Shown here piece by piece: positions 4,059 to 57,420 of a stretch of DNA of 64,000 nt. The stretch comes from Parcubacteria group bacterium GW2011_GWC1_36_108 (GTDB lineage Bacteria > Patescibacteriota > Minisyncoccia > Moranbacterales > GWC2-37-73), in NCBI GenBank assembly GCA_000991245.1, contig LBRD01000003.1, positions 6,734 to 70,733 on the forward strand. Direction: 5' to 3'. The notes under the pieces were generated by a model, which saw nothing but the letters and a program-made list of their open reading frames with translations, was not told the DNA's origin and did not search any database. The translations under genes and the position numbers were made by a program. Numbering within the stretch: the first letter of the stretch is position 1; the number at the start of each line of letters is the position of its first letter.

Positions 4059-5000
4059 ATGGAAGGTCAAAAACCGTTTATCTCAGTTGTCGTGCCTTTG
4101 TATAATGAAGAAGGAAATGTGAGGGAATTACACAAGCGTATTTTAGATGCGTGTGAAAAACTGGGAAAACCATTTGAAATTATCTTTATTGATGACGGTT
4201 CTAAGGATGAGACAATCAAAAATGCCCAAGGCTTGACTCCTCTTACTTTAATCAAATTTCGCAAAAATTTTGGACAAACCGCAGCTTTTGATGCTGGTAT
4301 TAAGCAAGCGCAGGGTGAGATTGTGATCACAATGGATGGAGATTTGCAAAATGATCCTGCTGACATCGGGCTGCTGTTATCCAAAATGGAAGAAGGATTC
4401 GATGTTGTTTCGGGTTGGCGTTTCAAGCGAAAAGATTCGTTGAGCAAAAAAATATTTTCACGTACTGCCAATTTGCTGCGAAAAATTCTGATTCAGGACA
4501 CGATTCACGATAGCGGTTGTTCTCTGAAAGCGTATAAACGAAATTGTTTCGAAGACGTTGATCTTTTTGGAGAGATGCATCGTTTTATGCCGGCATTGCT
4601 GGAACTTCAAGGGTATAAAATTGGTGAAGTGAAAGTGAATCATTATCCTCGCGTGCATGGCGTGACCAAATATAATTGGAAACGTGGGATGAAGGGTTTT
4701 GTGGATATGATTTCGATTTGGTTTTGGCGCAAATATTCCAACAGGCCGCTGCATCTTTTTGGTGGAACCGGCATCGTTGTTTCATTTTTGGGGACATTGG
4801 TTCTTGTTTGGATGGTGGTTGAGAAAATTTTCTTTGGCGCATCACTTTCAGAAAAAATATGGCCTTTGGTGGGAATCTTTTTGGTTCTCGTTGGCATTCA
4901 ACTTTTCGTGTTCGGACTTTTGGCCGATATTATGCTTAAGAATTATTACAAAGGACAAAAGAGGATGAATTACAATATCAAAGAAATTAGTCAAAGCTAA
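4059..5000 (+). CDS. GT2 polyprenol-phosphate glycosyltransferase (GtrB/ArnC-like)
   Basis: VVVPLYNEE...IFIDDGSKD...MDGDLQNDP, plus two C-terminal TM helices. Confidence 0.85.
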   Translation: MEGQKPFISVVVPLYNEEGNVRELHKRILDACEKLGKPFEIIFIDDGSKDETIKNAQGLTPLTLIKFRKNFGQTAAFDAGIKQAQGEIVITMDGDLQNDPADIGLLLSKMEEGFDVVSGWRFKRKDSLSKKIFSRTANLLRKILIQDTIHDSGCSLKAYKRNCFEDVDLFGEMHRFMPALLELQGYKIGEVKVNHYPRVHGVTKYNWKRGMKGFVDMISIWFWRKYSNRPLHLFGGTGIVVSFLGTLVLVWMVVEKIFFGASLSEKIWPLVGIFLVLVGIQLFVFGLLADIMLKNYYKGQKRMNYNIKEISQS

Positions 5001-29349: not shown

Positions 29350-30633
29350 TTATCGTCCGATTCCTTTATAGATTATACCACGTTTTTGAATTTCAGCCTT
29401 ATCGAGACAATTTTTTCCGTCAGTGATAACTTTGATGTTATTTTGTACAAATTTTTCAACAGGAATATCAATAAATTCTTGATGATTGGTAGCAAGTAGG
29501 ACAGCTTCACTTTTTTCCAATAGATCATCAATATTCTTAGCACTTGACATTGCAGGTACGAAAGGATCAAAGGTAACAACCTTGGCTCCATTTTTTTCCA
29601 AAAGCTTAATCAGTTCAAATGAAGGACTTTCTCTGAGGTCTCCAACGTTGGCTTTGTATGATAATCCTAATACTCCAACAGTTGTTCCTTTGAGAGATTT
29701 TTCAATTTCATTAAGTTGATCTTGCAAAAGTTCGATTGTGTATTCCGGCATACTGTTGTTTATTTTTCTGGCAGCTCGCAAAAACACGTGGTCGAAATCG
29801 TTTTCTTTGGCTTTTTCAATTAGGTAATATGGATCAACTGGAATGCAGTGACCACCAACTCCGCAGCTTGGCCAGTGTGCCAAAAATGAAAACGGTTTGG
29901 TGGATGCACCTTTAATCACGTTGGTAACATCTATATCCATTCGCTCAAAAGACCTGGCCAACTCATTTACAAAGGCAATATTGATATCACGGAAAGAGTT
30001 TTCGGTAATTTTCACAGCTTCTGCTTCTCGGATTGTTGCCATTGGCATAATTGGGGCATCCACAATGCTTTCATAAAACTCTTGTGAACGTTTCAAGCCA
30101 ATTTCATCAAAAGATCCAACCACACGCGGAATGTTTGAAACATTCCATTTTGGATCGCCGGGATTAACACGCTCTGGGCAGTGTGAAATAAAAACATCCT
30201 TACCAACTTCATAGCCTGCTTTTTCAAAAATTGGTTTGACGACTTCCTCACTAACTCCGGGATTGACGGTTGATTCAAGAATGACAAGCGAACCCTTCTT
30301 CATATTCTTAGCAACCGTTTCTGATGCACTTATAACTGGACTAAGATCTGGAAAATATTTATCATCTACTGGGGTTGGAACACATATGATATGGATATCA
30401 CACTGCGACATTAATTTTGGATCGCTGAAAACGTTTATTTTGACCTTTGGTAAGAGTTCCTCTAAAAATTCCTCCTTAAAAGGGGATATGCCTTGCTTGA
30501 TTAAATCTAATTTTTTCTGGTCATTATCAAAACCATATACTTCGTAACCCTTATTTGCGGCAACTGCGGCTAATGGTAAGCCCACATACCCCATTCCAAC
30601 AACGCACACTACTGGTTTTTCATTTTGATTCAT
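29350..30633 (-). CDS. nucleotide-sugar dehydrogenase (UDP-ManNAc/UDP-Glc dehydrogenase family)
   Basis: VCVVGMGYVGLPLA Rossmann N-terminus, GGHCIPVDP catalytic Cys. Confidence 0.85.
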   Translation of the reverse strand: MNQNEKPVVCVVGMGYVGLPLAAVAANKGYEVYGFDNDQKKLDLIKQGISPFKEEFLEELLPKVKINVFSDPKLMSQCDIHIICVPTPVDDKYFPDLSPVISASETVAKNMKKGSLVILESTVNPGVSEEVVKPIFEKAGYEVGKDVFISHCPERVNPGDPKWNVSNIPRVVGSFDEIGLKRSQEFYESIVDAPIMPMATIREAEAVKITENSFRDINIAFVNELARSFERMDIDVTNVIKGASTKPFSFLAHWPSCGVGGHCIPVDPYYLIEKAKENDFDHVFLRAARKINNSMPEYTIELLQDQLNEIEKSLKGTTVGVLGLSYKANVGDLRESPSFELIKLLEKNGAKVVTFDPFVPAMSSAKNIDDLLEKSEAVLLATNHQEFIDIPVEKFVQNNIKVITDGKNCLDKAEIQKRGIIYKGIGR

Positions 30634-30689: not shown

Positions 30690-30718
30690 AGTATATCTTT
30701 CTATAGAAATTAGGTCAA
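30690..30718 (-). promoter_or_regulatory. sigma70-like promoter (TTGACC-17-TATACT) for the minus-strand operon
   Basis: Read on the minus strand: -35 at 30718-30713, -10 at 30695-30690. Confidence 0.5.
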
Positions 30719-30732
30719 TTGTGATAGGGTTG

Positions 30733-30835
30733 ACCCCGTTAGAGATTTCACATTTATTGTTTAGTTTGAATATTGTACTTTATCTCTCAAAATAGACATA
30801 TTATTTGAGTTTACTTTTGAAATCTCTAACGGGGT
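30733..30835. repeat. perfect 18-bp inverted repeat ACCCCGTTAGAGATTTCA, arms 67 bp apart (operator or MITE-like)
   Basis: 30733-30750 is the exact reverse complement of 30818-30835. Lies between divergent promoters. Confidence 0.8.
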
Positions 30836-30863
30836 TGACAAAAGTGCTATTTGGGTGTATAAT
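30835..30863 (+). promoter_or_regulatory. consensus sigma70 promoter TTGACA-17-TATAAT
   Basis: -35 at 30835-30840, -10 at 30858-30863, both exact consensus. Confidence 0.6.
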
Positions 30864-30890
30864 AGATTGTTAATTTGTAAGTACAAAATT

Positions 30891-31028
30891 ATGCATAGAC
30901 AGCACCATAAAATGCACAAAGAGGAAATTATTTTCCATTTAATAGTCCCTGTGGTTATATTCGCGACAGTTGCGGCAATGGGATATTATGTGGTTATGCT
31001 TGTTACTGATATTATGAAAATGGCATAA
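30891..31028 (+). CDS. small membrane protein (45 aa), below track threshold
   Basis: MHRQHHKMHKEEIIFHLIVPVVIFATVAAMGYYVVMLVTDIMKMA. Sits downstream of the consensus promoter and upstream of a hairpin terminator. No clear SD. Confidence 0.4.
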   Translation: MHRQHHKMHKEEIIFHLIVPVVIFATVAAMGYYVVMLVTDIMKMA

Positions 31029-31043
31029 AGATTCAAAAAATTT

Positions 31044-31082
31044 AAAGACACTGGTTGCTGTTTGGCGATTAGTGTCTTTTTT
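31044..31082 (+). terminator. terminator-like hairpin
   Basis: AAGACACT-N19-AGTGTCTT followed by a T-run. Confidence 0.5.
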
Positions 31083-31096
31083 GTTATACTTACAAC

Positions 31097-32311
31097 ATGA
31101 TTAAAGTAGGAATAAATGCGTCATTTTTGCGCAAACAAAATACGGGGATAGGGCAAGTAAACATCAATTTTATTAAAAAATTGATGGAATTTCGAATTCC
31201 TGCCCGAAATGCTTCGCATAACGAAGCAGGCGGGTCGAATTTTGAATTTCTAAACAATAAGGAAGTTGAGTTTGTTTTGTATCTTGAAGAAGATGTTGAT
31301 TTAGATTTGCCGGATGGGTTCAGTAAAAAAGTTTTTTTGCCTGTATATAAGAGGGATGATTTGATACGTAAAATTTGGTGGGAAATGTTTTCACTCCCGA
31401 GAATTGCAAAAAGGGATAAATGTGATGTTTTTCTTAGTCTTTATCAGTCGCCAACAGTAATGCCAAAGAAAATAAAGCATATTATTGTTGCGCATGATAT
31501 TATTCCAAAACTTTTTCCAGAATATTTAAATAATTGGCGAAAAAAGATTTACCAATGGCTCATAGAACGAGCTATGAAAAAAGCTAATAAAATTATTGCG
31601 GTTTCGCATCGCACAGAAAAAGATTTGATTGCTCACTTAGAAATTGATGCCAAGAAAATTACAGTTTGCCATGTTGATGTGGATGAGATTTATAAAAAAG
31701 AAATTTCAGAAAAAGAAAGTCAGCGCGTTTTGAAAAAATATAATTTAGAAGCGGGATATATTTATTCCGGAGGGGGATTGGAAGTTAGAAAAAACACGGA
31801 GAATGTCCTTAGAGCCTATAAGATTTTGTTTGAAGCCTATGGTCATGCTAGTTGGCTTCCGAAAGTTGTTGTTTCTGGAAAAATGATGCCGCAGCTTGCT
31901 CCGTTGGTTACTGATGTTGAAGCTGTTGTGAAAGGTCTTGAACTCGAAAGCGAAGTTTCCTTATTGGATTTTGTACCGCAGGAAGATTTGCCGGCGCTAT
32001 ATAAAAATGCCAAAGTTTTTGTGTATCCATCATTATATGAGGGATTTGGACTTCCCGTTTTGGAAGCAATGAGTCAGGGCACTCCCGTGATAACATCAAA
32101 AACATCTTCACTGCCTGAGATTGGTAGTGACAGTGTTGTTTATTGCGACCCAAAGAGTGTGGACGACCTGGCGATGGTGATGAAGAATGTTTTGATGAGT
32201 AATCATTTGCTCAGTTCACTTTCAATAAAAGGCAAAGAGCGTGCTACGCATTTTTCATGGGATAAGTTTACTGAAAAGATGATAAATATAATAATTGATT
32301 TGAAAAAATAG
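31097..32311 (+). CDS. GT4 glycosyltransferase with an in-frame palindromic insertion
   Basis: YPSLYEGFGLPVLEAMSQGTPVITS. GC-rich palindrome at 31196-31238 encodes IPARNASHNEAGGS. Confidence 0.8.
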   Translation: MIKVGINASFLRKQNTGIGQVNINFIKKLMEFRIPARNASHNEAGGSNFEFLNNKEVEFVLYLEEDVDLDLPDGFSKKVFLPVYKRDDLIRKIWWEMFSLPRIAKRDKCDVFLSLYQSPTVMPKKIKHIIVAHDIIPKLFPEYLNNWRKKIYQWLIERAMKKANKIIAVSHRTEKDLIAHLEIDAKKITVCHVDVDEIYKKEISEKESQRVLKKYNLEAGYIYSGGGLEVRKNTENVLRAYKILFEAYGHASWLPKVVVSGKMMPQLAPLVTDVEAVVKGLELESEVSLLDFVPQEDLPALYKNAKVFVYPSLYEGFGLPVLEAMSQGTPVITSKTSSLPEIGSDSVVYCDPKSVDDLAMVMKNVLMSNHLLSSLSIKGKERATHFSWDKFTEKMINIIIDLKK

Positions 32312-41444: not shown

Positions 41445-42263
41445 TTAAAATGGGCTTTTGATGTTTCTAAGCATTGGATTAGTTACTTTCGTGTATATCT
41501 GTGTTGTTCTTATATTAGCATGTCCAAGCAATTCTTGTACATATCGCACATCAACCCCATTTTCAAGCAGATGAGTGGCAAAAGAATGTCTAAGTGAGTG
41601 AAAAGTGGCTTCTTTTTGAACCTCAGCTTTTTGCAGAGCATTTTCAAAAACTTTTTGTGCGCTACGCTCATCTAATTTTCCTCCGCGATTACTGGCAAAA
41701 ACATAATCATTTAAATCTCTAAGCGCAATCATATTAAGCAATTGTGGTTTCAATTTTTCTGAAATTACACTTATTCTATCCTTGTTTCCTTTAGCTCCTT
41801 TTATATGAATTGTTAATTCGTCTAAATTGATGTCTTTAATCTTTAAATTTATTGCTTCACTGACGCGAAAACCTGCGCCATAGGAAAGGGAAATGAGCAG
41901 CTTATGTTTCGGATTGCTTATGGAATCAATCATTCTTCCAATCTCATCCCTAGAAAGTACTACGGGCAATTTGCTGGCAGTTTTGGCAAATTTGATATCA
42001 ATTTCAATATTATTTTTAAAAACTTCTCTATAAAAGTATTTAATAGCTTGAAGATGCACATTCATCGTCTGTGAGGATTGTCCACGAGCTTGTTTTTCTA
42101 ATAAATATTTCTTAATTACTTCAATTTCCGGTTCGCGCTTAATAATTTTAATGTATTTGAAATATTCATTCAGACAAGACAAATAACTCTCAATTGTCCT
42201 TGGACTGTAATTTCGAAGTTTCAGTTCGTTTTTGATTTTTTCCAGCAACTCTTGGAGATTCAT
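41445..42263 (-). CDS. tyrosine site-specific recombinase (Xer/IntI-like, 272 aa)
   Basis: YSPRTIESY N-terminal SAM-like domain; KLPVVLSRDE; catalytic R (GFRVSE), K (KGNKDR), HSLRHSFATHL and LGHANIRTTQIYTKV (Tyr). There is no long insertion between the K and HxxR regions. Confidence 0.85.
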   Translation of the reverse strand: MNLQELLEKIKNELKLRNYSPRTIESYLSCLNEYFKYIKIIKREPEIEVIKKYLLEKQARGQSSQTMNVHLQAIKYFYREVFKNNIEIDIKFAKTASKLPVVLSRDEIGRMIDSISNPKHKLLISLSYGAGFRVSEAINLKIKDINLDELTIHIKGAKGNKDRISVISEKLKPQLLNMIALRDLNDYVFASNRGGKLDERSAQKVFENALQKAEVQKEATFHSLRHSFATHLLENGVDVRYVQELLGHANIRTTQIYTKVTNPMLRNIKSPF

Positions 42264-42321
42264 AAAAAATATGCTATATTTTATTCATAAATCAGTGATG
42301 GTTGTATTATACTAAAAGTTC

Positions 42322-42384
42322 GCATAACCTGCAACTTTCAACATACTATCAAACACTAAGTTCGTATATAAAGGAGTTATGTGC
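42322..42384 (+). other. attI-like region: GCATAAC (42322-42328) ... GTTATGTGC (42376-42384)
   Basis: Inverted AAC/GTT boxes 113 bp or less from the recombinase start. 42376 is where similarity to the right end of cassette 1 begins. Confidence 0.4.
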
Positions 42385-42489
42385 AATAGCCAGAAATACC
42401 CCATTATCTTTTAGAATTTTTTTTGGCGAAATGCAGGGTCGAATAACTCAAGGTAAAATTAATATTAATTAAATTAAACAACAAACATT

Positions 42490-43110
42490 ATGAAAGAAAT
42501 GTATCAACCATCGCAAGCTGAAATAAAAAAAGCAGAAGATGTCATGACTGAAGAACAAAAACTTGAGAGCATGACGAGAGAAAATGCTGTTCACGCAGGG
42601 GAAGCATCTTTCAGTGATTATGATGAAACAAAAAAAATTAACCCAGAAAAAACCCATAAAATTGAGATAGAACTGCAAGCCACAATTTATAAGGAATTCA
42701 ATGATCGAGTTAAAGAATTAGTTAAATCATATACAGAAAGCCTATCTGCCCTAAAAAGAGAAGCTAACTATGAAGACGACGAGCAGCTTGATGAGATAGA
42801 TAAAAAAATAAATGAATTAACAAAAAAATTATTTGAAGACTTTGGAGAACAGTATATGCGCTTAAGCAAGGTTGTAATAGACACCACAATAACAATATCA
42901 GATTTTGTAATTCATAAAAAAGACATGTTATTACAGCAAGAAGAAGATCAACAAAAAAGACAGGAGTTAGAAGCCAGCATACTTAAAAGCGAAAATGCAA
43001 AAATACAAAGAGCGGAAGCTGTCATAGCAAATCTTGAAAAATATATAAACGATGTTAAAAACAATTTTGAAAAAGGTGCTGAAGAATTAATGAAAGAAAT
43101 AAAGAAATAA
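42490..43110 (+). CDS. cassette 1 ORF: acidic coiled-coil protein, unknown function
   Basis: 206 aa, E/K-rich. Bracketed by inverted repeats 42376-42430 and 43117-43175. Confidence 0.6.
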   Translation: MKEMYQPSQAEIKKAEDVMTEEQKLESMTRENAVHAGEASFSDYDETKKINPEKTHKIEIELQATIYKEFNDRVKELVKSYTESLSALKREANYEDDEQLDEIDKKINELTKKLFEDFGEQYMRLSKVVIDTTITISDFVIHKKDMLLQQEEDQQKRQELEASILKSENAKIQRAEAVIANLEKYINDVKNNFEKGAEELMKEIKK

Positions 43111-43166
43111 GAAAAATTCGCCAAAAAAAATTAAACACAAATAAGGAATGGGTATTTCTAGCTACA

Positions 43167-43364
43167 GCACATAACAGCCCATATCTGGCTACAGGAAATT
43201 GACGCTAGTAAAAACAATATTGAGTGTCAATTTCCCTCCGCCCAAATTTTCATCCCTTGGTTTGATGAAGGTTTAGGCGGAGTGCATTAAAAAAAATATC
43301 AGCCTGTAATTAAAGTTTATCCTGCTAAACGGGATGAAAACTTCAGATATGGGCGACGTTGTGC
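43167..43364 (+). other. attC-like folded site 1
   Basis: GCACATAAC, then CCCATATCTG pairing with CAGATATGGG; hairpin GGAAATTGAC/GTCAATTTCC; CCCAAATT; GTTGTGC. Confidence 0.55.
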
Positions 43365-43527
43365 GAAATAAATTTTTTATCTATACTAATATTAGCGTTT
43401 AGTGATGCTAGTAAGGACAGAAAATTTGATTTTTTAATTATTTTAAGAGGGGTAATATGTGTTTTTCTGCTCTTTGGGGAGCAGAAAAAATTAATTCATT
43501 TGTAATTTATTTTTAAGCAATAAAACT

Positions 43528-44430
43528 ATGAGCATGGAACAACCAAAATTTAATCCACACAATCCTGAATATAAAAAAGTTGAGGATTTACCAAAAGAAG
43601 AACAAGTAAATTATTCTGACGTTGAAGGTGGTTTTGTTCAAAAAGAAGCAGCTGAGTTTTATAAAATAGCGCAGGACATTGAAAGAATTACAGAGCGCGA
43701 AAGTGGCTCAATGAGTGCTGACAAATTCATGATGCTTCTCGCGCAAGATGAGGACACGAAAAGAGAATGGGATGCGCTTACTGGAAAACAAAAGCTCAAT
43801 GTTCTCATGGGAAATCCTAAAAAAGAGGACATGGATTTATCGACTTGGAACACGAATAGGTCTGCGATAGAGAAAACTCTTGAAGAACATCCTGAACTTA
43901 GAGATAACAAGAAGCTTATGCTTAAATTGATTATTTCAGGTACCAGTCAGGCACCAGGGCTTGCTTCTGAAAAAGTGCGTAATGATAAGGGTTACGCTTT
44001 GGAGGCGGTAAAACGAAACGGAATGGCTCTCGGGTATCTTCCAGAGGAGATGCAAGACGATGAAGATGTTGTTATGGCAGCAGTTACTACGCGTGGATTA
44101 GCTCTTAGAGAGGCTTCTCCACGATTGCAGAACAATAGAGAAATTGTTGCTGCAGCAATCACCTCAGAGGATGGAGACTTTGGAGACATAATATATGCCT
44201 CCTCAGATGAGGTAATTGAAAGTTTATTGGATGAAAATAACCCAGCCAATAAGGATATTCTTTTAAAAGCGATGAATAACAAGCATGTCAATGATAATTA
44301 TAAAAGAATTGCCAGCTATAATCCAAATCATCCAGACTACCAGGGTGGGCAGTACGATGAAGTTTTCAAGAGATATGAGCATCTGCACATGCGTGAGAAA
44401 ATAGAGAAAATATTGGGAGAGAATTTATAA
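43528..44430 (+). CDS. cassette 2 ORF: DUF4116-type repeat protein
   Basis: Repeats of the form AVKRNGMALGYLPEEMQDDEDVVMAAVTTRGLALREASPRLQNNREIVAAAI. No SD. Confidence 0.6.
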   Translation: MSMEQPKFNPHNPEYKKVEDLPKEEQVNYSDVEGGFVQKEAAEFYKIAQDIERITERESGSMSADKFMMLLAQDEDTKREWDALTGKQKLNVLMGNPKKEDMDLSTWNTNRSAIEKTLEEHPELRDNKKLMLKLIISGTSQAPGLASEKVRNDKGYALEAVKRNGMALGYLPEEMQDDEDVVMAAVTTRGLALREASPRLQNNREIVAAAITSEDGDFGDIIYASSDEVIESLLDENNPANKDILLKAMNNKHVNDNYKRIASYNPNHPDYQGGQYDEVFKRYEHLHMREKIEKILGENL

Positions 44431-44455
44431 ATATCCAAAAAAATACCAATAAGGA

Positions 44456-44504
44456 GTCTTGAAAAAAGGAATTCACCCCTTACCCCTCTTCCTTTTTTCA
44501 AGAC
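44456..44504 (+). other. 15-bp perfect hairpin with conserved C-rich loop ATTCACCCCTTACCCCTCT
   Basis: GTCTTGAAAAAAGGA / TCCTTTTTTCAAGAC. The loop is complementary to AAGAGGGGTAA at 43445-43455 and 44782-44792. Confidence 0.7.
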
Positions 44505-44573
44505 AAAAATCAAATTTTCTTAGACGCAACACAACGTTTAGTTTAATAAAAAACGAGATAAAAAATTTACATC

Positions 44574-44700
44574 GCACAACAACTCATATCTGGCTCAAGA
44601 AATTGACACTTTAATGTTTCAGATGAAAGTCAATTTCTTTCGACCCAAATTTTTGTGCAATTACATTGCGCAAAAACTTCAGATATGAGTAACGTTAGCT
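44574..44700 (+). other. attC-like folded site 2
   Basis: GCACAAC, then ACTCATATCTG pairing with CAGATATGAGT; GAAATTGAC/GTCAATTTC; CCCAAATT; GTTAGCT. Confidence 0.55.
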
Positions 44701-44853
44701 GAAATATTTTTTTGTCTTTAGTAGTGATTTTTAGATTTGTGATTTAAATAGGGACAGAAAATTTGATTTTTAATTTATTTAAAGAGGGGTAATGGGATAT
44801 TTTTTTGCTCCTGGAATCGCAAAAAAAAGATTTATTTTATTTTTAAAAACAGT

Positions 44854-46431
44854 ATGGAAAAATATTCATTAGAAAATGCCCAGAGCGAAGCTACTGTTAT
44901 TAGAAATGATGCACAAGAGGCAAAACAAAAAAGAGTGCTAGAGGGCGAAAAAAGCGGTGAGCCAAATAGAGATGATTATGACAAAGCCGACAAAGCGATT
45001 GATAGCATTGGCATAAGTAATAGAAAAGAATTTGAGCAAAAACAAGCTGAGATACAAAATAAATATTCAACCGTATTGGAGGGGTCAAAAAATAGCGGTA
45101 ATCAAGAATCTGTAAAATTGCTTCAAGATAACATGAGTCAAGAACTATCTTTTATTGATAGCCAATCAAAGAAATTTAATAGTTTGGAATTTAAAAAGGG
45201 AGAGAAGGCGACGCGTGAATATATTAAAAAAAATAATCTTGATAAATTAGTAGAAGAATTCGGAATTGAGCCAATGAAAGAGGGTTGTCGTCTTTCATTG
45301 GTCATTCCAGCATGCAACGAGGGGCGTGATATTCAAAAAACATTACAATCCTTAGCAGAGCAGAAAGATGAAAATGGTGAAGGTATTAATCCTGATGAAT
45401 TTGAGGTTTTGATTACAGTCAATCAAAAAGAGCAATCAAGCGAGGAAATAAAAAAATCAAATCAACAAACACTTGAAGCAATAGAAGAATTCAAAAGGAA
45501 TAATCCATCTTTAAATATCCATGCTATTTTAAAAGAATTTACGGGCGAGCAAGGTGGTGTTGGTTGGGCAAGAAAATTAGGAAGTGATTTGGTACTTGCA
45601 AGAAGTTTTAGCAGAAATCAAGAATCTGAACGAGAACCGATGTATATTGCAGGAACTGACGCTGATACAATTGTTGGTGAGCAATATGTATCAGAAATTA
45701 TCAAGGCAGCAAATAAGTATGGCGATGCCGCCTATGGCGGTGGTGTTATTTTTGATGAGAATTGGGAAAAAGCATTGGGAAAAAATGCGTCCGACAAGCT
45801 CAGGGTATTCATGGAAGATATGCGTGGATTTCTATTAAAGGCATTAAATGGCGGTTTGCAAGGTGCAAACTTTGCCATACGCGAAGATATCTATGCTCGC
45901 ATGGAAGGAAGCTCAACAAAAGTACATAGCGAAGATGCGGAAAATGATGAACGATTACGAAGTTTGAAAAAAAATGTAACATTTTTAAATTCTGACCATA
46001 TCACTAGCTCTCGTAGGATGATTGGAGAATTCGAAAACTATATTGCTGGAATGCGAGGGCAAAAAATAGACTGGGAAACACGAAACAAGACTTATGGAAA
46101 GTCTGTCCCTACGGGAGAAAAAATTGACTTTACTGAATCCGAGCTTGATGAGGTAATTGCTTACCACAAATTACATAGATCAGATCTAATTATAGACAGT
46201 ATAACTTCGGAAAACGTAAATAATCCAGAGATGGTGCAATTGATTGGAGAAAAATATCATTCTGATTTTAAAGATTTAAAAACTGAAGAATTTAAGACAC
46301 TATTGAATGATAAAAATTTTAGAAAAAAATTACAAATTGAGATAGCATACAATATGTCTAAATTATTTGCATCGAAAATTTCATATACAGAAAAAGATAA
46401 ATTCATCATCGGAATTCCAGAAAAACAATAA
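44854..46431 (+). CDS. cassette 3 ORF: protein with central GT-A (GT2-like) glycosyltransferase fold
   Basis: LSLVIPACNEGRDIQKTLQSL and GTDADTIV (DxD-like). Coiled-coil N-terminus. No SD. Confidence 0.55.
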   Translation: MEKYSLENAQSEATVIRNDAQEAKQKRVLEGEKSGEPNRDDYDKADKAIDSIGISNRKEFEQKQAEIQNKYSTVLEGSKNSGNQESVKLLQDNMSQELSFIDSQSKKFNSLEFKKGEKATREYIKKNNLDKLVEEFGIEPMKEGCRLSLVIPACNEGRDIQKTLQSLAEQKDENGEGINPDEFEVLITVNQKEQSSEEIKKSNQQTLEAIEEFKRNNPSLNIHAILKEFTGEQGGVGWARKLGSDLVLARSFSRNQESEREPMYIAGTDADTIVGEQYVSEIIKAANKYGDAAYGGGVIFDENWEKALGKNASDKLRVFMEDMRGFLLKALNGGLQGANFAIREDIYARMEGSSTKVHSEDAENDERLRSLKKNVTFLNSDHITSSRRMIGEFENYIAGMRGQKIDWETRNKTYGKSVPTGEKIDFTESELDEVIAYHKLHRSDLIIDSITSENVNNPEMVQLIGEKYHSDFKDLKTEEFKTLLNDKNFRKKLQIEIAYNMSKLFASKISYTEKDKFIIGIPEKQ

Positions 46432-46434
46432 GGA

Positions 46435-46484
46435 GTTTTGTTTCAAAAAAATTCACCCCTACCCCTCTTTTTTTGAAACAAAAC
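46435..46484 (+). other. 17-bp perfect hairpin with conserved loop TTCACCCCTACCCCTC
   Basis: GTTTTGTTTCAAAAAAA / TTTTTTTGAAACAAAAC. The stem differs from 44456-44504 but the loop is conserved. Confidence 0.7.
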
Positions 46485-46553
46485 GAAAAATCAAATTTTC
46501 TTAGTAATAAAACAAAGTTTGTATTAATAAAATAGAAGACAAAAAAATACATC

Positions 46554-46743
46554 AGCTAACACGGCATATCTGGTTCAGAAATTTTTCACTTTTATACTTT
46601 TTAACGCCAAGGTTTGAAAAATTTCCTCTCCCAAATTGCGCTGTGATATGGCAAAGTTTAGTGATATAATTAAGGCAGGCAGAAAGTTGAAGTTTTAGCC
46701 AATGAATATGGGCGCAACTTCAGATGATGCCGATACGTTGTCG
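46554..46743 (+). other. attC-like folded site 3
   Basis: AGCTAAC, then GGCATATCTG pairing with CAGATGATGCC (one bulge); GAAATTTTTCA/TGAAAAATTTC; CCCAAATT; GTTGTCG. Confidence 0.5.
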
Positions 46744-46803
46744 GAAATATCAAAAAACAAATTCATTAATATTTTTTTCAAGCCCTTTTGAAATTCAGGT
46801 AAA

Positions 46804-46830
46804 GAAAAAACCGCACAGTATTCTGTGCGG
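46804..46830 (-). terminator. rho-independent terminator for the minus-strand small ORF
   Basis: Minus strand reads CCGCACAG-aata-CTGTGCGG followed by TTTTTT. Confidence 0.7.
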
Positions 46831-46848
46831 TCGTAATTACATTTGTCA

Positions 46849-47019
46849 TTATATCGCCCTCGACATTTCCTGAATTGAAGCCTCGCTTAGTTTGTTGTGT
46901 TCTTTTTCGTCACAAGAAGCTATCAAGTACGTGCACAAGATTATAGTACCACCAAATCCATTGGGAAAATGTTGGGCATGTCTACAGTCATCATCTTCGT
47001 ATGGACAACGCTTTTCCAT
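46849..47019 (-). CDS. cassette 4 ORF: 56-aa Cys/His-rich protein (below track threshold)
   Basis: AAGGAGGTGATTAAT-ATG strong SD. MEKRCPYEDDDCRHAQHFPNGFGGTIILCTYLIASCDEKEHNKLSEASIQEMSRAI. Has its own terminator. Confidence 0.5.
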   Translation of the reverse strand: MEKRCPYEDDDCRHAQHFPNGFGGTIILCTYLIASCDEKEHNKLSEASIQEMSRAI

Positions 47020-47092
47020 ATTAATCACCTCCTTGTTTAATGTGCTAGTATACTATTATTAGATAAATTATCAATATTGTCAAGCGGGGAAA

Positions 47093-47124
47093 AACTTCTC
47101 ATACTTAGATATGTTGTGCGAAAT
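47093..47124 (+). other. degenerate terminal site (AACTTC...TAGATAT-GTTGTGCGAAAT)
   Basis: Shares GTTGTGCGAAAT with 43358-43369 and retains a decayed AACTTCAGATATG box. Confidence 0.4.
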
Positions 47125-47212
47125 TTTTTAAAAATGCTGTGGATAAGTTACGGTGTACGGTTTTTAATTATAATGATACAATATCACTATAATTAAATAA
47201 AGAATAAAACTT

Positions 47213-48040
47213 ATGCAAAATCCAGAAAGTCACATTGCCATTTTCAAGGGAAAAACTATCAGAAAAATCATTTTTCAAAAGGAATGGTGGTTTTCTGTTG
47301 TGGATATTATACAGGTCATAACGGACAGTCCAACTCCAAGGCAATATTGGGGCAAGGTTAAGCAGCGTGAATTTACTGATCTTCAGTTGTCCCCAATTTG
47401 GGTACAACTGAAATTGGAAGCTTCTGATGGCAAAAAATATGAAACAGATTGTGCAAATACAGAAGGAATGCTTCGTATTATTCAATCAATACCATCTCCT
47501 AGGGTTGAACCATTGAAACGTTGGCTAGCAAAGGTTGGTTATGAGCGCATTCAAGAGGTAGAAAACCCAGAACTTGCCAGCAAACGGACAAGATTATTAT
47601 ATAAACTAAAAGGTTATCCTGAAGATTGGATTGAAATGCGTATGCGTGGTATTGCAATTCGCGAAGAATTGACAGATGAATGGCAAAAAAGAGGTGCAAA
47701 ATATAAACAAGATTACGAAATTTTAACTGCAGAAATATCTGAGGCCACATTTGGACTAAAACCAAATGAATATAAAAAAGTAAAAAGTCTGAAGCGTGAA
47801 AATCTTCGTGACCACATGGATGACTTCGAATTAATTTTGACTATGCTGGGCGAGCGAACCACAAAAGAAATTCATAAAACCAAAGATTCCAAAGGTATAC
47901 AAAGATTGAAAGATGATGCTAGACTTGGCGGAGAAGTAGCAGGAACAGCTAGAAAACAAATTGAAAGAAGAATTGGCAGACCAGTGATTTCAGAAAAGAA
48001 TTTTCTGAAATCTAACAATAGGAAGAAAATTAAAAAATAG
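47213..48040 (+). CDS. Bro-N domain protein (DinD/antirepressor-like)
   Basis: IAIFKGKTIRKIIFQKEWWFSVVDIIQVITDS N-terminal Bro-N pattern. DinD-like C-terminal half. Confidence 0.65.
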   Translation: MQNPESHIAIFKGKTIRKIIFQKEWWFSVVDIIQVITDSPTPRQYWGKVKQREFTDLQLSPIWVQLKLEASDGKKYETDCANTEGMLRIIQSIPSPRVEPLKRWLAKVGYERIQEVENPELASKRTRLLYKLKGYPEDWIEMRMRGIAIREELTDEWQKRGAKYKQDYEILTAEISEATFGLKPNEYKKVKSLKRENLRDHMDDFELILTMLGERTTKEIHKTKDSKGIQRLKDDARLGGEVAGTARKQIERRIGRPVISEKNFLKSNNRKKIKK

Positions 48041-48077
48041 AATATTTTCAAAAATAATAATAAGCAATCTTAATCTT

Positions 48078-48539
48078 ATGAAATATAAACACACTCAAAT
48101 TGGTTATCTGATGTTAGTTGTTACGTTGGCTGTGGCGGTGCTTTTCGCACGGATTTATATTATGGCTGCTGCCGAGCCACCTTCGGCTGATTCGGGCACA
48201 AATCTTCTTGTTACTGCTGTAATGTTATTAATCCTGTCTGTTCTTGCTTCCTTCGGGTCACTTCAAGTAATTATTGATGAAGAAAATTTAAGAATAAAAT
48301 TTGGCTACGGTATTTTTAGAAAAAAGTTTTCGCTTGATGATATAATTTCTGCTAAAACAGTGAAGAATCATTGGTATTATGGATGGGGAATAAAGATGTG
48401 GCTCTGGCCAAAAATGTGGATTTACAACGTTTCCGGTTTTGATGCGGTTGAAATAAAAATGAAGAATGGTAAAATGTATAGAATAGGCACGGATGAACCT
48501 GGAAAATTAGAACAAGCAATTTTGCAATCAATTAAATAA
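48078..48539 (+). CDS. membrane protein, two TM segments plus a small soluble domain
   Basis: 153 aa. Hydrophobic N-terminus. Confidence 0.5.
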   Translation: MKYKHTQIGYLMLVVTLAVAVLFARIYIMAAAEPPSADSGTNLLVTAVMLLILSVLASFGSLQVIIDEENLRIKFGYGIFRKKFSLDDIISAKTVKNHWYYGWGIKMWLWPKMWIYNVSGFDAVEIKMKNGKMYRIGTDEPGKLEQAILQSIK

Positions 48540-48574
48540 TTAAGACTAGGTAAAAAAATAAAAAAACAAAAACT

Positions 48575-48781
48575 ATGTTTAAACATCACAAAAAGAAAAA
48601 CCCATTCTTGTATCATTTAATATCAGGAATTGGGCTTATTATTTTTTGGCGAGGAATTTGGGGGATTATGGATCTGTATCTCTTTCCCGGAAATCCAACG
48701 CTGAGTCATTCTTTTGCAATTACACTTGGGCTTGTTATTTTATATTTCAATGATTTTTCAATATCAGAGTTGATCAAATAA
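48575..48781 (+). CDS. small membrane protein
   Basis: 68 aa, two hydrophobic segments. Confidence 0.45.
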   Translation: MFKHHKKKNPFLYHLISGIGLIIFWRGIWGIMDLYLFPGNPTLSHSFAITLGLVILYFNDFSISELIK

Positions 48782-49064
48782 GTGGCTCGGTTTTGACTTT
48801 CGGCGCATCTGATTTCTTGCCAATAATTTTGAAGAAGTAATTCCACTTTTGTCCTGTTTTGCAAAGCTCTTTGGTGTCGTTCATTGCGCGCTCAACGATT
48901 TGTTTGTTGTATTGCTTGCAGACACGAAAGATGGAACCGCGTTTGTCATTGGGAACATCAAAATCTTTGATAATTTTAAGTGCCAGCTCTTGCCACTGAT
49001 AAGCAGGAGCTTTTTGAACAACTCTTTTTTTCATTAATTCTCCAAAGGTTTTTAAATCTTTCAT
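48774..49064 (-). CDS. hypothetical protein
   Basis: 96 aa, basic, no recognisable motif. Confidence 0.45.
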   Translation of the reverse strand: MKDLKTFGELMKKRVVQKAPAYQWQELALKIIKDFDVPNDKRGSIFRVCKQYNKQIVERAMNDTKELCKTGQKWNYFFKIIGKKSDAPKVKTEPLI

Positions 49065-56992: not shown

Positions 56993-57385
56993 CTAGTTTT
57001 TTATTAGGTCACTTAATTTCATCCCGTACAGTGTTTTTTTAATTTGCACTCCTAATTTATTCCAAACAACACTTGATGGACATTTATGCTCGCTGGAACA
57101 GAATTTTCCTACACAGCGCATTGGCGCAATATCTCCATCCAAAAGTTCTATGATCTCGCCAACCGGAATTTTTTTTGGGTCTTTCGATAACACATAACCA
57201 CCCTGTTTTCCTTTTGAGCTTTGTACCACTTCCCCATTTCGAAGGATTCCCATCAGTCTCTCAAGATATTTTTGAGAAATATTTTCTTGACTGGCAATCT
57301 CGCCTATTGTTTTTTGGGCTGGATAACATTGAGCCAGGTTAGTCATAGCCTTAAGTCCATATTCTGCTTTAGTGGAGAATCTCAT
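56993..57385 (-). CDS. Rrf2 family transcriptional regulator (IscR-like)
   Basis: Start moved to MRFSTKAEYGLKAM. Cys cluster CVGKFCSSEHKC. Lies upstream of NifS-NifU. Confidence 0.8.
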   Translation of the reverse strand: MRFSTKAEYGLKAMTNLAQCYPAQKTIGEIASQENISQKYLERLMGILRNGEVVQSSKGKQGGYVLSKDPKKIPVGEIIELLDGDIAPMRCVGKFCSSEHKCPSSVVWNKLGVQIKKTLYGMKLSDLIKN

Positions 57386-57420
57386 ATTTTTATTAATGTC
57401 TACTAAATTAGTATACATTC

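Follow-up and report, generated by a model that had tools for sequence, protein, structure and literature searches.

Within a large glycosylation cluster of the 64,000-nucleotide stretch of DNA analyzed here (the window), two divergent promoters are separated by a perfect inverted repeat. The question raised by this locus is whether the repeat regulates the promoters or whether it is an insertion that came to lie between them. The first-pass annotation had offered two readings, namely a paired operator for a dimeric regulator that controls both promoters, or a 103-bp MITE that brought a promoter with it. Analysis of the window placed ACCCCGTTAGAGATTTCA at 30733-30750 and its exact complement at 30818-30835, with 67 nt between them, in agreement with that description. 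Just two matches to ACCCCGTTAGAGATTTCA were found in the 64-kb window when up to 3 mismatches were allowed (0.02 expected; two matches in 0/100 shuffled sequences), and the pair stood at the top of the list of 14 inverted-repeat pairs separated by no more than 300 nt. Both promoters were likewise located as claimed, and they were the best two promoter-like sites in a 4-kb scan. The features of the locus are given below, where L numbers denote loci from other genomes used for comparison.

29350-30633, minus strand: nucleotide-sugar dehydrogenase, first gene of the leftward glycosylation operon (Pfam UDPG_MGDP_dh N, central and C domains)
30690-30718, minus strand: native dehydrogenase-operon promoter TTGACC-17-TATACT (consensus 10/12; conserved in relatives)
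30730-30733, no strand: left target-site duplication TTGA (direct repeat of 30835-30838; single TTGA at the L128/L129 empty site)
30734-30750, plus strand: left terminal inverted repeat CCCCGTTAGAGATTTCA (an identical 17-mer bounds dispersed elements in other genomes)
30751-30817, no strand: element interior, 67 bp, AT-rich and non-coding, with a weak inner hairpin (no complete ORF, no Rfam match)
30818-30834, minus strand: right terminal inverted repeat, complement of the left (repeat search)
30835-30838, no strand: right duplication TTGA, bases 1-4 of the -35 hexamer (direct repeat; empty-site comparison)
30835-30863, plus strand: native small-ORF promoter TTGACA-17-TATAAT, rebuilt by the duplication (consensus 12/12; element-free in L006, L049, L050 and L128)
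30891-31028, plus strand: conserved gene for a 45-aa membrane protein with one predicted helix and an N-terminus rich in His and Lys (codon changes, hydropathy)
31044-31085, plus strand: intrinsic terminator of the small ORF (16-pair stem, then a T run)
31097-32311, plus strand: GT4 glycosyltransferase, first gene of the rightward cluster (Pfam; in L131/L132 directly after the dehydrogenase promoter region, with no small ORF)

Examination of the repeat boundaries upheld the perfect pairing but not the claimed length of 18 bp. The 18th pair consists of the A and the T of the two flanking TTGA copies, which leaves 17 nt (30734-30750 and 30818-30834) for the inverted repeat proper. The element that it bounds spans 30734-30834 and measures 101 bp plus two 4-bp duplications, rather than 103 bp. 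It has the properties expected of a MITE: it is short, it has no complete ORF and no RNA family match, its terminal inverted repeats are perfect (17/17), and a fixed-length target-site duplication borders it. A related genome also supplied an empty site. In Moranbacteria GW2011_GWE1_36_7, whose dehydrogenase is 95% identical, the corresponding sequence is GGTCAAttacactagtcTTGACAaaaagatgatttgggtgTATAAT, which equals the window minus the element and one TTGA. The empty site in L128 and L129 reads GGTCAAttacactagtcTTGACAaaaag, with one TTGA, both divergent promoters intact and their -35 hexamers 11 bp apart. The window reads GGTCAAttgtgataggg-TTGA-(101 bp)-TTGA-CAaaag, which is the empty-site arrangement with the element and an extra TTGA added. 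In GW2011_GWE1_36_7 (L128 1-170) the small-ORF promoter is followed by different sequence downstream.

We also compared the two promoters with their counterparts in relatives. The -35 sequence GGTCAA and a TATAnT -10 of the left promoter are kept in L035, L128, L131, L006 and L049. For the right promoter, L006, L050 and L049 carry an identical TTGACA-17-TATAAT followed by the small ORF and its terminator, with no repeat and with a co-directional EamA or DUF218 gene as the upstream neighbour. The presence of promoter, ORF and terminator in three element-free relatives indicates that the promoter is native and not imported, and because homology between the window and these three loci starts at the -35 hexamer, that hexamer was already there when the element inserted into it. 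The proposal that the element brought a promoter with it, as a Correia-type MITE would, is thus contradicted, since the empty site has both the -35 and the -10, and neither falls within the element.

These comparisons show the following insertion history. The dehydrogenase and small-ORF promoters originally stood back to back, at the 11-bp distance between -35 hexamers seen in the empty site. Integration took place at the TTGA that opens the small-ORF -35 hexamer TTGACA, with duplication of those four bases, probably through a staggered 4-bp cut made by a transposase acting in trans. As TTGA is duplicated, the right junction reads GGGG directly followed by TTGACA, which leaves the hexamer intact and still 17 bp from TATAAT; the promoter survived insertion because the duplication restored its -35 box. 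At the left junction the spare TTGA is fused to CC, and the net effect was to move the promoters apart by about 105 bp. To judge by the sequence, the insertion was probably near-neutral for both promoters, and we infer no demonstrated regulatory role for the window element. The TTGA duplication, the empty site in a close relative and the dispersal of the same arms across genomes all bear out the mobile-element reading. We consider it highly probable (about 0.88) that the inverted repeat marks the two ends, 17 bp each, of a MITE-like, non-autonomous mobile element of 101 bp.

The repeat might instead be a structure in its own right, a cruciform, transcript hairpin or terminator that insulates or attenuates the divergent units. 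Single-strand folding revealed a strong predicted fold both as RNA (-40.7 kcal/mol, z = -7.0) and as DNA (-19.3 kcal/mol, z = -6.4), as this explanation would have it. However, the repeat lies upstream of both promoters and is therefore transcribed by neither, no T run follows the stem, and the 67-nt loop would be expected to make cruciform extrusion unfavourable. Rfam searches of the whole window at gathering thresholds, and of the locus at E <= 1, returned noise and no family match for the element; the noise comprised FasX at 19.7 bits (threshold 100 bits) and a CRISPR repeat model on the terminator. A tRNA/tmRNA scan of the window identified none. In addition, the promoters are conserved in relatives that lack the repeat, and are hence judged functional there. 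A structural role of this kind is very improbable, and the MITE-like insertion is retained as the explanation of the repeat.

A search for other copies of the repeat found the 17-mer dispersed in a sister genome and in many phyla. The family was collected by 17-mer scans of genomes (one per species) and metagenomes, which yielded 66 unique paired elements. The sister genome, Parcubacteria GW2011_GWD2_38_11, contains at least 8 copies (the 17-mer in six contigs, and two further copies in the same loci), and the two arms lie about 100 bp apart in most of these contigs. Multiple dispersed copies, as expected of a MITE, are thus present in this genome, and one copy is present in the 64-kb window. 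Hosts of the paired elements included Omnitrophota, Planctomycetota, Nitrospirota, Cloacimonadota, Gammaproteobacteria and several candidate-phyla-radiation lineages. Of the 66 unique elements, 36 were flanked by perfect direct repeats of 4 bp, compared with 0/66 in a control using adjacent 4-mers; only 2 duplications extended to 5 bp, and the duplicated sequences were mostly TTGA, TTTA/TAAA and TTCA/TGAA. The elements measured 29 bp (CCCCGTTAGAGATTTCATCTCTAACGGGG) at the shortest and about 300 bp at the longest, and those of Moranbacteria-like contigs clustered at 100-102 bp. The interiors of different copies were unrelated, even within one genome. Nested copies were found in L095, and tandem copies with a common duplication in L124.

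Among the loci examined, no further empty sites were found for the sister-genome copies. A scan of viral contigs with the 17-mer and a search of plasmid and phage records with the element gave no match. Literature searches with the element end sequence returned primer coincidences only, and those on MITEs in candidate-phyla-radiation bacteria returned nothing relevant. The kind of element is known, and the family is apparently undescribed. In the sister genome, the L040 and L018 contigs both start 89 bp before an element copy, with the element at position 90, which suggests that the element repeat breaks short-read assemblies.

The window element is one of several that adjoin a promoter. In Moranbacteria-like contigs, 9 independent copies were located in TTGAC[A/T] hexamers, every one with TAnnnT 16-17 bp further on, and one of them lies upstream of greA. 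Where TTGA flanked an element, the next bases were CA in 7/11 cases and the next base was C in 9/11, compared with 6.6% (10/151) and 15% of intergenic TTGA sites in the window (P about 1e-6 for the enrichment of CA, with a background from one window and copies from several organisms). The 4 nt on the outer, 5' side of the duplication were G-rich in 12/72 cases against a background of 3.6% (P = 1e-5), so the target tends to resemble the element's own GGGG end. These figures would fit a mobilizing enzyme that prefers TTGAC-type sites or promoter DNA and makes the hexamer a hot spot for repeated insertion. The duplication common to the tandem and nested copies (L124, L095) would fit such an enzyme as well, as would the interior of the window copy, which is nearer to that of L040 at another sister-genome locus (3/67 differences) than to that of the copy at the same position in L035 (13/67). 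In other phyla, however, the duplications are TTTA, TAAA, TTCA and TGAA and carry no promoter signature; no enzyme is known for the element; and in a genome this gene-dense (82% in long ORFs) a survival filter could itself enrich scar-free sites. We therefore regard targeting as possible but doubtful. The -35 association may reflect target preference or the survival of harmless insertions. Downstream of the promoter that carries copy L033#1, a G+C-rich, structured-looking segment (L033 971-1230) has no long ORF and no Rfam or tRNA match, and may be an unclassified RNA gene.

To the interior differences just given can be added those of the arms, where the window and L035 copies differ at 0/34 positions. 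Across five copies of the same subfamily, the arms differ at 0-1/34 positions and the interior at up to 24/68. This estimate of arm conservation is inflated, because the loci were retrieved with an exact 17-mer. Selection on the arms, gene conversion and repeated insertion at the same site are possible sources of the pattern. The arms are better conserved than neutral drift would predict, which counts against the MITE reading and leaves room for a function of the arms. One such function would be that of operators, or of a co-opted protein-binding site, controlling the small-ORF promoter, the dehydrogenase promoter or both, and likewise the other promoters that bear elements. Invariant arms beside diverged interior and flanks are consistent with this, as are the identical geometry with which an arm adjoins the -35 hexamer in all nine independent Moranbacteria-like copies and the rarity of CA after TTGA at intergenic sites in the window. 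Against it, the sites are not conserved together with the promoters: L128 keeps both promoters without the repeat, and in L006 and L049 conserved promoters again stand without it. The arms are no palindromic half-sites, being devoid of internal dyad symmetry, and their centres are 85 bp apart. No regulator gene was found within 25 kb of the repeat, the nearest being an Rrf2-family gene at 56993-57418, and identical arms occur inside coding genes and a tRNA gene of other genomes. The paired operator of a dimeric regulator put forward in the first-pass annotation is not supported, and the broader version of a protein-binding site is improbable. The MITE-like element accounts for the arms as its ends.

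The copies outside promoters were also analyzed. At locus L018 of the sister genome (LBTZ01000005.1), a 102-bp copy lies in the 5' end of a tRNA-Pro(TGG) gene (90-259), with the element at 90-191 and the tRNA at 187-259 (ARAGORN). Bases 1-5 of the tRNA are the element's CGGGG and are followed by the duplicated CGTG. The displaced original, GGGGCGTG, is found at the left flank of the element, and L102 carries the same sequence. The element's CGGGG and the duplicated CGTG together re-form the 5' end of the tRNA-Pro, which consequently stays intact. Copies were also found in frame in genes for TatD (L011 6078-6106, L070 323-351, L081, L094 and L126), RecG (L063, L068, L078 and L087, where they are nested) and UvrA (L093 1822-1880), in a thioredoxin-reductase-like gene and in a PD-(D/E)XK nuclease gene, the in-frame loci including L076 2407-2465 and L026 6105-6184. 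These in-frame copies are 29, 59 or 80 bp long, so that their length plus 4 is divisible by 3. In coding-gene copies the arms translate to PVR...SNG or PLE...LTG, and the product of the TatD insertion reads GIHP-VRDEISNG-xxPH, with PVRDEISNG as the element-encoded peptide. Scar-free insertion would thus appear to be a habit of the family.

Carried further, these observations might describe an undescribed, cross-phyla palindromic family that inserts without a scar, homes to sigma-70 -35 hexamers in Moranbacteria, and has its arms kept by a bound protein, either a transposase or a derivative of one. If this were true, the target would be a sequence that resembles the element's own end plus 4 bp (GGGG followed by NNNN), insertion into which rebuilds a hexamer, a tRNA 5' end or a reading frame, and one binding site would stand in identical geometry at nine or more promoters. 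Taken as a whole, this description is unlikely.

A mobilizer was sought both near the window element and near the rest of the family. No transposase or autonomous parent was detected in the window, or in 960 kb of loci around 120 matches. Clustering of the proteins that recur near elements revealed only histidine kinases, PCMT, T2SSE, MraW and TPR proteins, and no transposase. End pairs 0.4-4 kb apart with matching duplications amounted to a 622-bp pair that spans two 29-bp copies and one chance pair, and single-arm loci were mostly chance matches in coding genes (e.g. a conserved Methanosarcina gene) or degenerate hairpins. The missing parent counts against the MITE reading, as do the unrelated interiors within one genome, which would be unusual for a family with a single progenitor.

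Prokaryotic MITEs in general have been reviewed (PMC10969869). The present family resembles them in being short, non-coding and dispersed, with perfect terminal inverted repeats, a fixed duplication, an empty site and nested or tandem copies. The searches turned up no parent insertion sequence for it, and it further differs from typical MITEs in that interiors are unrelated even within one genome, copies of 29 bp look functional, and 17-bp ends are identical across several phyla. Correia elements of Neisseria are about 100-150 bp long, have terminal inverted repeats, often lie just upstream of genes and affect promoters, and contain an IHF site along with sigma-70-like promoters of their own (PMC10969869). 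The window element is like them in its length of about 100 bp, its terminal inverted repeats and its placement upstream of genes. Correia elements duplicate TA, whereas the duplication here is 4 bp, and the -35 and -10 at this locus are outside the element and older than it. Rickettsia palindromic elements are selfish palindromes that reside in frame within housekeeping genes, which tolerate them (PMC10969869). The copies in frame in TatD, RecG, UvrA and other genes recall them by placement, although the window copy is intergenic. Rickettsia palindromic elements are about 150 bp long and found in Rickettsia only, whereas the family described here ranges from 29 bp to about 300 bp, occurs in several phyla, has clear 4-bp duplications and is also found in promoters and a tRNA gene.

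With regard to a possible source of transposase, IS1380/piggyBac elements have ends that start CC or CCC, and make 4-5-bp duplications at T/A-rich targets such as TTAA. The CCCC ends and the TTNA/TNAA-kind duplications of the present family make this group a candidate mobilizer by resemblance, which is a lead only, and no IS1380-type or other transposase was found adjoining the family ends. Short dispersed palindromes, sometimes in inverted pairs, are also a feature of RAYT-mobilized REP/REPIN sequences. REPs are headed by GTAG and do not duplicate their target. The clear 4-bp duplications speak against a REP/RAYT identity, and the window contains no gene for a RAYT transposase. Three other candidates were rejected: an integron attC site, as core-like motifs are in the wrong order and the outer bases are wrong; a CRISPR repeat, as the copies are single with duplications and not in arrays; and a Tn3-derived element, as members of the Tn3 family duplicate 5 bp of target and their outer ends are GGGG, not CCCC.

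The gene on the right of the element was assessed independently. The 45-aa ORF was present as claimed, and so was its hairpin terminator (31044-31079, followed by a T run); the ORF had been called unannotated, but it is listed in public gene calls, and a 98%-identical copy at NCBI is named 'hypothetical protein PHP62_02390'. Compared with L006 and L050, the ORF showed 4 synonymous and 0 non-synonymous codon changes, and compared with L049 4 synonymous and 1 non-synonymous, making 8 synonymous versus 1 non-synonymous in the close comparisons. The more distant L035 differed by 12 synonymous and 13 non-synonymous changes with identical length, start and stop, and frame and length are thus kept at 29% amino-acid divergence. 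Hydropathy above 2 over residues 12-39 predicted one membrane helix. No Pfam match was obtained, and the homologues found were all very close. In the terminator, 16/16 pairs were retained in four relatives, with one pair altered on both sides. At the level of sequence comparison, these data show that the small ORF is a real, conserved and independent gene under purifying selection, predicted to encode a small membrane protein and equipped with its own strong promoter and terminator. More distant relatives, in which the dehydrogenase is 84-92% identical, lack the ORF, and the gene is therefore lineage-restricted. The module of promoter, ORF and terminator is variable in its occurrence, being absent upstream of the dehydrogenase in L131-L133, and in L006 and L049 three to four extra genes lie between the dehydrogenase and the small ORF.

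The genes around the repeat belong to the same glycosylation cluster on both sides. Leftward, the dehydrogenase is followed by a 76-aa ORF, GT2, GT4 and DUF1616 genes; rightward, the order from the repeat is small ORF, GT4, Wzy_C, GT4, LytR and GT2. The dehydrogenase matches a protein of Candidatus Moranbacteria bacterium GW2011_GWC2_37_73 at 100% identity, and the contigs that share its gene come from Rifle aquifer metagenomes. Several smaller features were observed in and near the cluster. The GT4 gene contains a 36-nt in-frame insertion at 31199-31234 (CCTGCCCGAAATGCTTCGCATAACGAAGCAGGCGGG; 12 aa, PARNASHNEAGG), which contains a small palindrome, is absent from the orthologues in L006, L131 and L132 and is unrelated in sequence to the 101-bp element. 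In L049, some 300 bp of additional DNA (4200-4440) separates the terminator of the small ORF from the GT4 gene; it includes an inverted repeat of its own, gttttgcctgttt...aaacaggcaaaac, and could be a further small insertion. Further along the window, positions 41445-49000 have lower G+C (0.325-0.353) and a positive AT skew, contain genes for a tyrosine recombinase (41445-42263), a DUF4116 protein and a BRO-N domain protein (47213-48040), and may be an integrated element. Perfect 16-17-nt hairpins were found at 44456-44504 and 46435-46484. An ORF at 500-865 matches the 23S rRNA-intervening-sequence protein family (PF05635, E = 2e-16).

For this locus, since the divergent promoters and the small membrane-protein gene prove to be native, an attractive regulatory explanation falls away. 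To our knowledge, there is little documentation of mobile elements in the reduced genomes of the candidate phyla radiation. With its apparent tendency to settle in promoters, in a tRNA gene and, in frame, within housekeeping genes, the family is a candidate for the source of peptide insertions and rearranged promoters in these genomes.
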